Source: a virus (taxonomy: Duplodnaviria > Heunggongvirae > Uroviricota > Caudoviricetes). From it: DNA of 64,000 bases. Each line of letters starts with the position of its first letter. Within the stretch, counting starts at the first letter, position 1. The stretch spans positions 69,231-133,230 of the IMG/VR virus record IMGVR_UViG_3300040801_004519, one strand, 5' to 3'. A program made the position numbers and the translations under genes. Positions 41,883 to 48,105 of this stretch are shown here, piece after piece. The notes below the pieces were generated by a model. It saw only the letters and a program-made list of their open reading frames with translations, searched no databases and had not been told where the DNA came from.

Positions 41883-43943
41883 ATGGCTAAGGTTAAAAAA
41901 AGAGGCCCAAACGAAGAGTACACCCGCATCAAACATACTCCTTTTACAGAGGAATTTGAAGCAAAATTAGCTGAGTCAGCAAAGAAGGCCAGAGACTACC
42001 TGTACGCGAACCATCGCATCGTGAGCGTTGAAGACGCAAGCCCTTCGGTGAAGGTGATCAGAGTATTCGGTGGGCTATGGAACTGGTATATCGACTCTGA
42101 ACAAAAACTGGTCTACTCGACAACCCGTATTCCAAAGTCCAACGAAATCCACAAGCTCACTGTATCTTCTTCTTCCCACGAGCTTACCCAATGTGCGATT
42201 GAGAAGCAAAGAAAGCTTGGACCCGAGATCGTTTCCTTTCTCGATGGCAAGTTAAAAATGGCTGGGGAACAATCCAGTTGCTTCTGGTCAATCTCTGCAA
42301 GTGAATTTCCGATCAATGTTGACAACAAACAAGTTGTCGAATGGAAAACTGTTATTCGTGCATTCGCTATTCGAGAAATTGCAAGACACATGTGGCCTTG
42401 GGTTGAAAGCAAATGGATTGATCCAGATTCCGATGAGGGAAATTATTTTCCCAAGCCAGGAAGAGGTAATGCCAGTCACTACAAAATTCACAAAAACACA
42501 TATTGCACTCGGAGGGATGTATGTGCAAGAATTGTTCACGAAGCGAATAAGGTAATTAACACTTGCTGGGGCAAGAGTATTAATTTTGATCACGCTAAGA
42601 AAGCCATCTGTAAAGCAGTGTGGAGCAACTTAGACAATGATGTTGTGAAGATTGCATTTGCCTCTGAAGGTGTTCGTTATAATGGCTTTCATTATTCGGC
42701 ATGTTGGAAAAATAAAGATGAGCTAAAAAAGGTTCATGAACACTCACCCTCTGTTTTGCCAATCTGGATGTGTCTCATCCAAGGAATTCGGCTTTCTGGC
42801 TGGCATGCCCCCCTTCCAATAATGCCAGATATCATTAAAGATGTCAGGTCGGTCATTGATCTAACAGACAAATACGAGTCTTTGAGAAAAGGTGGATGGA
42901 AGTCTCTACTCAAATCTTCAACATCGTGCAGTCGCTTCTTAGCTAAAAAATTCTACAATTCGTTAACCAAAGCTTCTTATACGTATTTTTCCGATAAAGA
43001 CGATTTCAAGGGCAAATTAAGTCTAATGATGGGATATGAGAACGATGATTTTGATCTTGACAAACCTGTAGATAACTCTAACTCTTTTTATGAGCTTCAC
43101 CCTGACCAGGGCGGGGACACCCTAACTCATTCGTTAAGGTGTTCAACCCTTCCCCGCATCCTTAATCTCTTTGCCGAAGTTGGAGAGATTCCAAGGTTCA
43201 CGTTGCTCAAAATGTGTTGTGGGAGAGTCCAGGGAGTACATAAAGCTCCTACACTTGTATCATTTATGCGTGCAGCATGTCGTGCTTCAAAGAAATCTCG
43301 GAATATCAAGAATTTCGTAACAAATGAGTTTGAACTTGCTTGGGATTGGTTAACTCGTTCTGTAGCTGATGGGTATCGAAACGCCCTTGACGTGAGGAGG
43401 CATGGAACCATGCCAGAGCTTGACAAAAATCAGAGGAACTGCGATTGGGATTGGTTCATGCGGCAACAGGCTCAGTGGCATAATGAAGTTGCTCTTCAGC
43501 GTTCAGTCCAAGGCGAAGATTACTCTTGGGAAACACATCTTGACCAGTACAAGCACAAGGGTCACACCTTCGTTCCCCTAACCAGTACATCAATGTTAAT
43601 TGAAGAGGGAAGAGACATGCATCACTGTGTTGGAAGCTATTCAAATGAATGCCGATCTGGTCGTTCTCAGATTTGGAGCATCAGGAATAACCGTGGCGGG
43701 AAAAGAGTTGCTACTGTTGAGTTAAAAATTAGAAACAAATTTACACAAAATTTCACTGAGGAGTCTAGGAGTTTACAGCTAGCAGATGTAAAATCTGTAT
43801 CTGTAAGTCAACTTCGTGGACCTTGCAATGCAGAAGTGTCAAAAGAGGTTACAAAGTTAGCCGCTGACCTTGCAAAGCGATATGCAAATGCGGTTGGTAT
43901 AGAAGCTGATGTCAATCATGGGAATTTAGTAAACGCATTCTGA
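41883..43943 (+). CDS. PcfJ-like protein
   Basis: LIEEGRDMHHCVGSYSNE matches the PcfJ family EGxxMxHCVGxY signature; 686 aa. Confidence 0.45.
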   Translation: MAKVKKRGPNEEYTRIKHTPFTEEFEAKLAESAKKARDYLYANHRIVSVEDASPSVKVIRVFGGLWNWYIDSEQKLVYSTTRIPKSNEIHKLTVSSSSHELTQCAIEKQRKLGPEIVSFLDGKLKMAGEQSSCFWSISASEFPINVDNKQVVEWKTVIRAFAIREIARHMWPWVESKWIDPDSDEGNYFPKPGRGNASHYKIHKNTYCTRRDVCARIVHEANKVINTCWGKSINFDHAKKAICKAVWSNLDNDVVKIAFASEGVRYNGFHYSACWKNKDELKKVHEHSPSVLPIWMCLIQGIRLSGWHAPLPIMPDIIKDVRSVIDLTDKYESLRKGGWKSLLKSSTSCSRFLAKKFYNSLTKASYTYFSDKDDFKGKLSLMMGYENDDFDLDKPVDNSNSFYELHPDQGGDTLTHSLRCSTLPRILNLFAEVGEIPRFTLLKMCCGRVQGVHKAPTLVSFMRAACRASKKSRNIKNFVTNEFELAWDWLTRSVADGYRNALDVRRHGTMPELDKNQRNCDWDWFMRQQAQWHNEVALQRSVQGEDYSWETHLDQYKHKGHTFVPLTSTSMLIEEGRDMHHCVGSYSNECRSGRSQIWSIRNNRGGKRVATVELKIRNKFTQNFTEESRSLQLADVKSVSVSQLRGPCNAEVSKEVTKLAADLAKRYANAVGIEADVNHGNLVNAF

Positions 43944-43952
43944 TATTTTAAG

Positions 43953-46676: not shown

Positions 46677-46788
46677 ATATTTATATTCAACGCAAAATAG
46701 CCGAAACCTGCGATTGCGTAGTAAATTCGTGGATTGATGGCCACAGACTACTCTTGGTGACGATATCTAAATAACCGAGCATCCTAAA

Positions 46789-48105
46789 ATGAGTCTACAG
46801 AAAGTCCTGCAAAAATTCGAGGAAATAGAATCTACTTCAAAGCGAAGCGAAAAGGAGTCTTTGTTGAGGGAATTGAGGGATGATCCCGCCTTATCGCCTA
46901 TAGCACAAGAGTTTTTCTCGATATCATTAGACTGGTATAGGATATTTGGTGTTGGGGAAAAGACTATATCTGATAATCTTAAAGGTAGTTTGGTTGACGA
47001 TGATGACATGTTCGTAGATGGCGATTCCGTTCCTTTTGCAAGTGACTGGGATGGATTCACGAAGTTCGCGAGTCGTCTTGAAAAGGGGCATATGCCCAAA
47101 GATGAAATCGTATCGCAACTGGATGCGTATGGATCGGAGCTTGAGCAAAAGTGGCTGCGACGTGCAATCCTAAAGAACCTCAGGATGGGTGTTACTGAGA
47201 AAACAGTCAACAAAATCTGGCCAGGTTTGATACGTTTCTTTGAAGTTCAACTGGCAGATTCCCTTGAAGACGCAGAGACGCTTGGGATGCCTCCGAGGTC
47301 TTATATTGTCGAGCCGAAACTTGATGGTGTGAGAGCTATTGCACGAGTTGAGAAAAGTTTAGGTACAGTTACATTCTTTAGCCGTGGCGGACAGCCTTTG
47401 CACCACACAGGCGCAGCGGGCATTGATAAGGCCCTCTTAGAAGGCGTAGAAGGAGATTGCGTGCTAGACGGCGAGTTGTTCTCCCGAGACTTCAACTCCA
47501 CAATGAAAGTCGTTTCTCGCGGCGAAAATGAACCAGACAAGCGACTTGTTTCCGACCTTGAGTACTATGTATTCGATATGCTCACACTTGAAGAATGGGA
47601 TAATCAAAAGTGCGACCGAACTCTAGTTGAAAGAAGAGACGCGATCCCGTTTGAAGACATGTCTGACAACTCTCAAGCAAAAGTAAAAGTCACCGAAGAG
47701 AAAACCATATCTGATATCAGTCTATTTTACTCGATAAACAAAGAGTTTCTTGACAGGGGGTTTGAGGGCACAATGGTGAAAGAGCCTGATGGCCTCTATG
47801 TATTTAAAAGATCAAAAGGCTGGTTGAAGTATAAACCTGTAGAAACTTTTGACTTTAAGATCATTGATGTTTTTGAGGGAAAGGGGAAACACAAGGGTCG
47901 TCTTGGCGGATTCATTATTGAGCTTGAAGACGGAAGTACGTGCGCTGTCGGCAGCGGCTTTAACGATGCCGAGCGAATAGCTTACTGGGAAGAAAGGCCC
48001 ATTGACCTATTCTGTGAGATTAAGTTCAAGATGAGAACACCCGATGGAAAGTTAAGAGAACCAATATTCGTCAGGATGAGGCTTGACAAGGGATATGCCG
48101 AATAA
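46789..48105 (+). CDS. ATP-dependent DNA ligase
   Basis: Motif I EPKLDGVRAI (KxDGxR), motif III YVFDM, motif IV EGTMVKEP, motif V GWLKYKP, then OB-like C-terminus. Confidence 0.8.
   Translation: MSLQKVLQKFEEIESTSKRSEKESLLRELRDDPALSPIAQEFFSISLDWYRIFGVGEKTISDNLKGSLVDDDDMFVDGDSVPFASDWDGFTKFASRLEKGHMPKDEIVSQLDAYGSELEQKWLRRAILKNLRMGVTEKTVNKIWPGLIRFFEVQLADSLEDAETLGMPPRSYIVEPKLDGVRAIARVEKSLGTVTFFSRGGQPLHHTGAAGIDKALLEGVEGDCVLDGELFSRDFNSTMKVVSRGENEPDKRLVSDLEYYVFDMLTLEEWDNQKCDRTLVERRDAIPFEDMSDNSQAKVKVTEEKTISDISLFYSINKEFLDRGFEGTMVKEPDGLYVFKRSKGWLKYKPVETFDFKIIDVFEGKGKHKGRLGGFIIELEDGSTCAVGSGFNDAERIAYWEERPIDLFCEIKFKMRTPDGKLREPIFVRMRLDKGYAE

Follow-up and report, generated by a model that had tools for sequence, protein, structure and literature searches.

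We analyzed a 64-kb stretch of the uncultured virus record IMGVR_UViG_3300040801_004519 (positions 69,231 to 133,230; hereafter the window), in which the open reading frame (ORF) at 43953-45251 encodes a poly(ADP-ribose) polymerase (PARP) of 432 amino acids (aa). The gene lies in a cluster with genes for a Ro60-like protein, a PcfJ-like protein, and an ATP-dependent DNA ligase, and the original prediction for this DNA had read the cluster as a mobile nucleic-acid damage-response island. The sole neighbor conserved across the PARP family, unlike the ligase, PcfJ, and Ro60, is another gene, the ORF at 48298-49128 (hereafter the partner), which lies just outside the region covered by that prediction. 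The best overall explanation, which we consider rather probable, is that of a break-responsive phage PARP with the partner as its real functional associate; a ligase cassette would have been inserted here, and PcfJ and Ro60 would be lineage specific.

Domains and residues of the window PARP

The PARP and its domains, including the ADP-ribosyltransferase (ART) catalytic domain, were placed as follows.

43953-45251, plus strand: PARP, 432 aa (Pfam, phmmer, and motif positions)
43992-44183, plus strand: WGR domain of PARP, aa 14-77 (Pfam)
44340-44702, plus strand: putative helical regulatory domain of PARP, about aa 130-250 (alignment to PARP1)
44700-45245, plus strand: ART catalytic domain of PARP, aa 250-431, triad H304/Y339/E414 (Pfam and alignment)

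The ORF matched the Pfam family PF00644 over residues 250-431 (E = 3.7e-30; 105.4 bits against a curated cut-off of 26.7) and the WGR family PF05406 over residues 14-77 (E = 1.1e-13; 51.5 bits, cut-off 22). The motifs WGRVG (residue 37), WHGTR (303, containing H304), GLYFA (337, containing Y339), and NDEYVVY (412, containing E414) were located, and the last three fell on WHGSR, GIYFA, and NEYIVY of PARP1 in the phmmer alignment. These PARP1 motifs hold its H-Y-E triad (H862, Y896, and E988 in standard PARP1 numbering). In a phmmer search of all PDB sequences, the best matches were WGR-to-catalytic fragments of PARP1 (E = 4e-23; query residues 33-402 and 404-430), followed by PARP4, PARP2, PARP3, and the tankyrases. 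Among the 58 PDB matches at E <= 1e-3, PARP4 was the only mono-ART PARP, being named a mono-ADP-ribosyltransferase by its PDB entries. Residues 130-250 aligned without a break to the helical domain of PARP1, the stretch ahead of the catalytic glutamate was about 23 residues shorter than in PARP1, and the isolated WGR region aligned to PARP3 (E = 1.4e-4) and PARP2. By sequence, the ORF is a bacterial/phage-type PARP of the PARP1/2/3-type clade with a probable minimal WGR/helical/ART layout. The WGR and H-Y-E calls of the original prediction are thus borne out by Pfam, phmmer, and motif positions alike; the outcomes that it had named as counterevidence, a different ART clade (Tpt1 or diphtheria-toxin-like) or a failing WGR call, did not occur, as the protein is of PARP1/2/3 type and its WGR match is above the cut-off.

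PARP2 is activated by 5'-phosphorylated breaks, and its WGR contact residues N127, N129, K130, W151, R153, K183, and Y201 detect the 5'-phosphorylated break and pass this signal on to the regulatory domain (PMC8190142). Residues N18, N20, R21, W37, R39, and K68 of the window PARP align with the first six of these, in that order, and Y75 would correspond to Y201, the WGR alignment stopping at residue 69. N18, N20, R39, K68, Y75, H304, Y339, and E414 were invariant across a 36-sequence alignment of the PARP family. Because the break-contact residues are conserved together with a putative autoinhibitory helical domain, we argue that DNA breaks are the activating signal, and the window PARP is probably a DNA-break-sensing ADP-ribosyltransferase. 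We infer what is said here of its DNA-dependent activation, its poly or mono activity, and its targets from sequence comparison.

HaPARP (Herpetosiphon aurantiacus Haur_4763) and CdPARP (Clostridioides difficile CD160) are similar to the window PARP in length (about 430 aa), in the predicted WGR/PARP_reg/PARP_cat order, and in H-Y-E, a likeness of architecture and not of direct sequence comparison. Both auto-poly(ADP-ribosyl)ate in vitro, and the activation of HaPARP requires DNA (PMC5966428, PMC4245714, PMC8120803); no partner protein for either was found described in the accessible literature. The cores of human PARP2 and PARP3 have the same minimal WGR-helical-ART set and H-Y-E triad at low sequence identity, and the window PARP differs from them in lacking a disordered N-terminal DNA-binding tail. 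To our knowledge, no HPF1 equivalent is known for PARPs of the window type.

Spread of the PARP family

The original prediction regarded PARPs as essentially unreported among viral genes, and this does not stand, given eight cultured-phage homologues, relatives on 66 IMG/VR contigs, and publications since 2014. A tblastn search of 50,697 phage records returned the eight full-length homologues at 30-33% identity and 97-99% coverage, among them those of Xanthomonas phages XacN1 (ORF414, BBA65562.1) and Xoo-sp13, Klebsiella phages 05F01, FBKp34 (gp111), and KP13-16, and Stenotrophomonas phages CM1 and RAS14. Several, including XacN1 ORF414, Xoo-sp13, and FBKp34 gp111, already carry a poly(ADP-ribose) polymerase annotation. 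The 66 IMG/VR contigs, of which many measure 150-550 kb, were found by an alignment-based scan, which was needed since a single-sequence search of IMG/VR confirmed no relative. Relatives were also present in 39 GTDB genomes (Armatimonadota, Blastocatellia, Gemmataceae, cyanobacteria, Omnitrophota, and a Pseudomonas megaplasmid). A search of a large protein database gave at least 1,280 clusters at 90% identity (E <= 1e-5), of which the best 120 were all about 430 aa long with the same architecture. The window PARP is nearer to sequences of uncultured phages and bacterial metagenome-assembled genomes (44-50% identity) than to the cultured-phage PARPs.

Phage PARPs were listed in 2014 (PMC4245714), the XacN1 PARP was cited in 2021 (PMC7824862), PARP/PART was counted among the most frequent viral ARTs in 2022 (PMC9503650), and a DNA-repair role for a jumbo-phage PARP was proposed in 2024 (PMC11662467). 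A phage-borne WGR-PARP is therefore a kind of gene already recognized, and the present locus leaves knowledge of the enzyme itself unchanged. The PARPs of cultured jumbo phages, to which earlier work had drawn attention (PMC7824862), have the same three domains as the window PARP, whereas their neighborhoods, unlike the window, hold no ligase, PcfJ, Ro60, or partner gene.

Enzymes that remove ADP-ribose were looked for in three sets. No Macro, PARG, ADP-ribosylglycohydrolase (ARH), or NADAR match was found by Pfam in the 59 window ORFs of at least 120 aa, in agreement with the original prediction, which had seen no PARG or macro-domain eraser nearby. None of these families was present in the precomputed Pfam matches of loci L005, L006, L007, and L009 or among the 25 families listed for 149 PARP-flanking ORFs. 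The genomes of H. aurantiacus and C. difficile differ from the 64-kb window of this probable phage in that they encode PARG and MacroD.

The eraser-free window would fit one-way modification, as would be expected of a host-takeover or NAD+-conflict effector. In such a role, the PARP would mainly modify host proteins (RNA polymerase, nucleoid, or defense proteins), like the T4 ARTs Alt, ModA, and ModB, or would consume or compete for NAD+; it would be unrelated to phage DNA repair, and its adjacency to the ligase would be incidental. Iyer et al. propose that jumbo-phage PARPs act on host proteins like other phage ARTs (PMC7824862), the neighbors of the cultured-phage PARPs are nucleotide-metabolism genes and genes of unknown function, and the PARP-ligase linkage is not conserved. 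However, the conserved WGR break-contact residues and putative helical domain argue for activation by breaks. In addition, in the bacterial-chromosome contexts that we looked at, close PARP homologues stand with the partner among housekeeping genes, where host takeover would make no sense. We consider this alternative unlikely, though it is the strongest of the competing explanations.

A conserved partner gene follows PARP in bacteria and phages

The partner and the small ORF behind it are placed as follows.

48298-49128, plus strand: PARP partner (orf276), 276 aa, gene directly after the ligase
48298-48615, plus strand: predicted winged-helix-like domain of the partner, aa 1-106 (AlphaFold2/Foldseek)
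48805-49125, plus strand: predicted MraZ-like double AbrB/SpoVT domain of the partner, aa 170-276, after an acidic disordered linker
49138-49473, plus strand: orf111, small ORF 3' of the partner, with a homologue that follows the partner in L009

The neighborhoods of 75 PARP loci and 39 GTDB bacterial loci were compared, and all ORFs within 6 kb of PARP were clustered. The partner family was found near PARP in 24 loci by BLAST clustering and in 37 of the 75 after HMM iteration, and every other neighbor cluster reached at most 9 loci. In these 37 loci, the partner was always 3' of PARP and on the same strand, mostly abutting it. It adjoined PARP in 12/39 GTDB bacterial loci (Blastocatellia, Armatimonadota, and Omnitrophota), so that it lies downstream of PARP in 49 of the 114 sampled loci (about 40%), in bacteria and phages. 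Three partner homologues that had been retrieved independently of PARP (P0121, P0123, and P0124) all lay beside a PARP gene; the contig of P0121 is the same JGI contig as that of L016. Because the partner follows PARP in bacteria and phages while the other neighbors turn over, we take it as the probable functional associate of PARP.

An exhaustive HMMER search gave 815 representatives of the partner family at E <= 1e-3. A word-indexed search with the partner alignment returned five proteins only and is too insensitive for so divergent a family. The window partner had no match in Pfam, PHROGs, or PADLOC, cultured phages held no BLAST-detectable copy, and no description of the partner was found in the searchable PARP literature; it is possibly a PARP partner of an undescribed kind.

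The AlphaFold2 model of the partner, built from an 88-sequence alignment, has an N-terminal domain (aa 1-106, pLDDT 92-97) of helix-helix-helix-strand-strand topology, a disordered acidic linker, and a beta-rich C-terminal domain (170-276, pLDDT 70-88). The Foldseek matches in PDB and BFVD were winged-helix DNA-binding proteins, and the N-terminal domain carries the conserved motif FTAxD ... VYHP ... DY. A MazE or AbrB Pfam match was present in 4 of 24 partner members, and a profile search of PDB reached AbrB only at E ~0.1. From these predictions, the partner is most likely a two-domain DNA-binding protein consisting of a winged helix and an MraZ-like AbrB domain. Unlike MraZ and the AbrB/MazE/SpoVT factors, it would have the AbrB-type fold joined through an extended disordered stretch to a winged-helix-like domain at the N terminus, and it is genomically tied to PARP, not to cell-division operons or toxins.

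A C-terminal domain of the AbrB/MazE/SpoVT type is used by many type II antitoxins, and many bacterial ADP-ribosylation systems are toxin-antitoxin pairs (PMC8120803). The tight PARP-partner gene pair, shared by bacteria and mobile elements, might accordingly be a toxin-antitoxin, abortive-infection, or superinfection-exclusion module, with PARP as a DNA-end-triggered, NAD+-depleting toxin and the AbrB/MazE-fold partner as antitoxin or autorepressor. We think this improbable. Neither protein had a PADLOC match, and the same holds for PcfJ, orf185, orf262, the ligase, and Ro60. The bacterial contexts examined were housekeeping regions and not defense islands, and the partner is encoded downstream and is much larger than typical antitoxins. 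Moreover, half of the PARPs have no partner, which would be intolerable for a toxin unless autoinhibition sufficed.

Two observations concern the 3' end of the partner gene. It stops at TAG, and orf111 follows in frame after 9 nucleotides (nt), so that read-through would add 114 codons. The window also carries at 28977-29051 (plus strand) a tRNA with a CUA anticodon, an amber suppressor, which ARAGORN calls tRNA-Pyl and which scores 33.2 bits against the Rfam tRNA model; TAG is the stop codon of 11 of the 59 large ORFs, Ro60, orf185, and the partner among them. The suppressor tRNA may serve to read through or recode TAG at particular stages, as has been described in some large phages, and it could yield a partner-orf111 fusion protein. 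Programmed read-through at this site was not adopted, as the L009 counterparts also abut in frame but across TAA, and the arrangement may be a coincidence.

The ligase cassette and the island reading

The genes between PARP and the partner, and the gene ahead of PARP, are the following.

41883-43943, plus strand: PcfJ-like protein, 686 aa (Pfam PF14284), with EGRDMHHCVGSY at residue 575
45327-45884, plus strand: orf185, 185 aa, no family match
45888-46676, minus strand: orf262, 262 aa, no family match, with a DSD (Asp-x-Asp-like) motif
46789-48105, plus strand: ATP-dependent DNA ligase, 438 aa, nucleotidyltransferase domain at aa 155-349 and OB domain at aa 363-431

The ligase exceeded the Pfam cut-offs for DNA_ligase_A_M (PF01068; E = 4.7e-22, 79.1 bits) and for the OB domain (PF14743; E = 7e-15, 55.2 bits) and matched phrog_114 at 5e-87, while it reached no NCBIfam equivalog cut-off. 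Its nucleotidyltransferase motifs, which the original prediction had reported to be complete, were located as K177-LDG (KxDG) and, for motifs III-VI, as DGEL at 227, EGTMVK at 326, WLKYK at 345, and LREP at 422. In our best explanation, it is an ordinary phage nick-sealing enzyme. Neither orf185 nor orf262 had a family match in Pfam, NCBIfam, PHROGs, or PADLOC, and no PDB relatives were found for these two or for the PcfJ-like protein. The DSD motif of orf262, seen by inspection, suggests a GT-A glycosyltransferase; its slot is variable, being occupied by a DNA methylase in L005 and a glycosyltransferase in L006.

The PARPs closest to that of the window are on the contigs of L005, L006, and L009 (49-50% identical; L009 PARP, 49%), and their gene orders are as follows.

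L006: Ro60, T4-type RNA ligase, DUF8296, PARP, glycosyltransferase, orf185 homologue, DNA ligase, small ORF, partner homologue, giant minus-strand gene
L005: as L006, on a contig that does not extend to Ro60
L009: PcfJ fragment, DUF8296, PARP, small ORF, partner homologue, orf111 homologue, giant gene, without ligase

Since L009 has no ligase and a ligase block separates PARP from the partner in the window, L005, and L006, we interpret the block as an insertion in this lineage. We assign orf185 to the same cassette because in L005 and L006 its homologues immediately precede the ligase. Only contigs of this lineage (L005 and L006) share the Ro60 ... PARP ... ligase order, L009 of the same lineage being without the ligase; the order from Ro60 to ligase is therefore a property of one lineage. 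Searched at the nucleotide level, the 8.2-kb cluster had no match among phage genomes.

These orders bear on whether Ro60, PcfJ, PARP, and the DNA ligase act in concert as a single mobile damage-response island, as the original prediction proposed. The gene grouping is real, with the genes of the PcfJ-family protein, the ligase, and the upstream Ro60 confirmed as ORFs with Pfam matches, and the order is kept within the lineage: Ro60, T4-type RNA ligase, PARP, and DNA ligase in L006, and RNA ligase, PARP, and DNA ligase in L005. Beyond the lineage, PARP, partner, and DNA ligase are contiguous in L032 and L034, PARP, partner, and RNA ligase in L016/L115, and a ligase lies about 800 bp upstream of PARP in L035. 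A Pfam census of 149 PARP-flanking genes from 59 lineages (clusters of PARPs at 70% identity) found no dominant family (GIY-YIG 4, DUF7487 3, RNA_ligase 3, Rnl1 2, DNA ligase 2, and NUDIX 2), and in it the polynucleotide ligases (RNA_ligase, Rnl1, and DNA ligase) were the only recurring functional class. Moreover, the 5'-phosphorylated nick that a PARP2-type WGR domain recognizes is the substrate of a ligase (PMC8190142).

On the other hand, a DNA ligase lay within 10 kb of PARP in only 7 of the 75 loci, Ro60 in 2, and PcfJ in 2, and a ligase was near PARP in 1/39 bacterial loci. About five lineages had any ligase within 3 kb, which is roughly the random expectation for one to three ligase genes in a genome of 200-300 kb by a rough estimate and not a formal test; the count within 10 kb was likewise close to a rough random expectation, so that a PARP-ligase linkage beyond chance is suggestive only. 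The ligase is missing from L009 in the same lineage, Ro60 is of deviating composition and bracketed by terminator-like hairpins (see below), and PcfJ has no known function. With an order confined to one lineage, a ligase proximity near chance, and Ro60 a separate unit, the mobile damage-response island is not established, and we hold it to be quite unlikely.

GIY-YIG was the most frequent Pfam family among the PARP-flanking genes. In L115 (and L016), a homing-endonuclease-like GIY-YIG gene (L115 4167-4862, minus strand) sits precisely between PARP and the partner as an insertion in the opposite orientation.

PcfJ and Ro60 are lineage-specific neighbors

The PF14284 match of the PcfJ-like protein (E = 5.5e-14; 52.6 bits, cut-off 25; profile positions 56-129 of 147) is limited to residues 551-622 of 686 (nt 43533-43748), and the N-terminal 550 aa are unannotated. 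Otherwise, the protein matches PHROGs of unknown function. Membership in PF14284 carries no mechanistic information, the family being without known function. Because PcfJ ends 9 nt before the PARP start, the two genes are probably cotranscribed. Among the loci compared, a PcfJ relative, a partial homologue, was present in L009 alone.

The Ro60 gene lies upstream of PcfJ with the following features.

40052-41767, plus strand: Ro60/Rsr-like protein with TROVE and vWA_Ro60 domains (Pfam)
39498-39529: terminator-like hairpin (consensus scan)
41795-41820, plus strand: terminator-like hairpin with an 11-bp stem, 8 G-C pairs, and a T-rich tail, located after the Ro60 stop and ahead of PcfJ, setting Ro60 apart from the PcfJ-PARP unit (consensus scan only)

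Both Ro60 domains were above the Pfam cut-offs (TROVE, E = 1.3e-34; vWA_Ro60, E = 2.1e-55), and the NCBIfam Rsr equivalog scored 450.6 bits against a cut-off of 900. Ro60 has a GC content of 51.7% and a GC3 of 55.6%, compared to 43.3% for the window and 40-44% for its neighbors. The two hairpins are the strongest terminator-like ones of the region and lie on both sides of Ro60. From the outlying GC content and these flanking hairpins, Ro60 is read as a separately acquired transcription unit, which suggests that it is a recently acquired, self-contained unit, part of the context and outside the PARP module.

The 261-nt spacer directly 5' of Ro60 (39791-40051, plus strand) is strongly structured, with a minimum free energy of -94.3 kcal/mol against -78.7 +/- 5.0 kcal/mol for shuffled sequences (z = -3.1; 0 of 200 shuffles as good). 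At 39998 it holds the T-loop-like GGTTCGAA, and we regard the spacer as a candidate Y-RNA-like partner of Ro60. The search for a Y RNA beside Ro60 gave no Rfam match at E <= 1 and no tRNA-like call, and the spacer had no sequence conservation with the region upstream of the L006 Ro60.

In about 12 of about 115 loci, a protein containing a vWA/MIDAS segment was encoded no more than 10 kb from PARP: DUF2828 plus DUF7788 in L117, L035, L072, L024, and L106, a small vWA protein in L001, L051, L063, L019, and L028, and Ro60 in the window and L006. The DUF2828/DUF7788 proteins were rejected as Ro60 relatives, since the vWA/MIDAS segment alone matches weakly (hhalign probability 54%, E = 1.3e-4) and homology to TROVE is unsupported, with no Ro60 match in PDB.

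Proposed mechanism

In the mechanism that we propose, the WGR domain would bind a DNA break with a 5'-phosphate, and this binding would free the autoinhibitory helical domain. The H-Y-E site would then use NAD+ to ADP-ribosylate the PARP itself and nearby DNA-bound targets. The partner may be a DNA-bound substrate of PARP or a regulator that turns break-dependent ADP-ribosylation into changed DNA binding or transcription. The cassette of orf185, DNA ligase, and a small ORF would have entered between PARP and partner in this phage lineage. The ligase would seal the type of nick that activates such PARPs, so that the insertion is functionally plausible, its position being no proof. Any physical or functional link of PARP with the partner or the ligase is part of this proposal.

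A more specific version, which we put forward tentatively and consider possible rather than probable, is that PARP and partner form in prokaryotes and phages a two-component switch responding to DNA breaks. The DNA-bound partner would be ADP-ribosylated by break-activated PARP or would direct PARP as HPF1 directs PARP1/PARP2, and DNA binding or transcription would be altered as a result.

Several observations weigh against a break-responsive PARP with the partner as associate. The PARP_reg match (PF02877; E = 0.0038, 17.7 bits) is under its 26.8-bit cut-off, although a precomputed PF02877 match is present in many close homologues. H-Y-E is no guarantee of polymer synthesis, and poly and mono activity are not readable from sequence. 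An eraser-free window, at the scope of 64 kb, is unusual for a reversible signaling system. About half of the PARP loci, including those of all the cultured PARP phages, have no detectable partner, which indicates that PARP can work without it. An hhalign comparison of the partner profile with 38 other neighbor clusters gave probabilities below 5% throughout, so that the partner-less loci appear to hide no remote homologue. In the window itself, the partner lies 3 kb from PARP with an opposite-strand gene between them, and therefore the two are probably in different transcripts here. Finally, no structural gene was found in the window, which we read as phage DNA, and an exact 40-mer of the PARP gene gave no match in IMG/VR.

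The window and its other genes

The window is probably a region of accessory genes from an uncultured bacteriophage of large size (at least 133 kb). The viral origin is deduced from phage-like content, namely PHROG matches, many family-less ORFs, an HNH/EndoVII endonuclease, and the suppressor tRNA. Genes lie in strand blocks, with 1-49.5 kb on the plus strand and the remainder on the minus strand, and the window also encodes a DNA methylase, a dCMP deaminase, an RNA ligase, a sliding-clamp-like protein, DnaJ, and an FtsH-like protease. The end of Ro60, PcfJ, PARP, and the start of orf185 recur identically on a JGI contig of 4.4 kb, and the protein cluster to which the PARP belongs contains a JGI contig of 133 kb. 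Further genes were observed as follows.

6096-6854, plus strand: HNH/endonuclease VII ORF, homing-endonuclease-like, phrog_374 at 6e-28
13954-15078 and 15385-15948, plus strand: a second polynucleotide ligase (PF09414 RNA ligase plus PHA02142 OB) and an AAA_28 kinase-like protein, 30 kb upstream of PARP
22736-23605, plus strand: AAA_15/AAA_21 ABC-type ATPase, 289 aa, with many PADLOC matches (PtuA of Septu at 6.9e-18, AriA of PARIS, AbiLi)
49851-55598, minus strand: ORF of 1,915 aa with three Hint/PT-HINT/intein-like domains (about residues 663-1080) split by poly-glycine runs of 16-22

AAA_28 is presumably the family of the NadR ribosylnicotinamide kinase domain. The ORF at 22736-23605 is, by its matches, a defense-type ATPase on a probable phage. 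The N- and C-terminal regions that flank the Hint-like domains of the giant ORF have conserved counterparts in the giant genes on the minus strand of L005, L006, and L009. Auxiliary genes unusual for a phage were seen at 8277-9350, 30923-32980, 33401-36721, 10415-12689, and 58181-61752; they include a full-length DnaJ, an FtsH-like AAA+/M41 protease, DUF502, a membrane protein of the SPFH/Band-7 type, and enzymes of polysaccharide modification in two groups (pyruvyl transferases, GT1, GT8, a capsule-synthesis protein, and a methyltransferase).

Implications for PARPs outside eukaryotes

The PARP family found here exceeds by far the 28-72 bacterial sequences that published counts give. The lineage-specific grouping of PARP, ligase, and Ro60 calls for caution in inferring repair islands from a single window. 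The partner, in turn, is a concrete candidate, open to testing, for a protein that serves as substrate, cofactor, or regulator of a PARP outside eukaryotes. If the proposed switch is true, PARP and partner would form an ADP-ribose-based, SOS-like circuit and would give the first physiological handle on bacterial PARPs, and the DNA ligase would have been captured in this phage lineage as an output or co-worker of that circuit.

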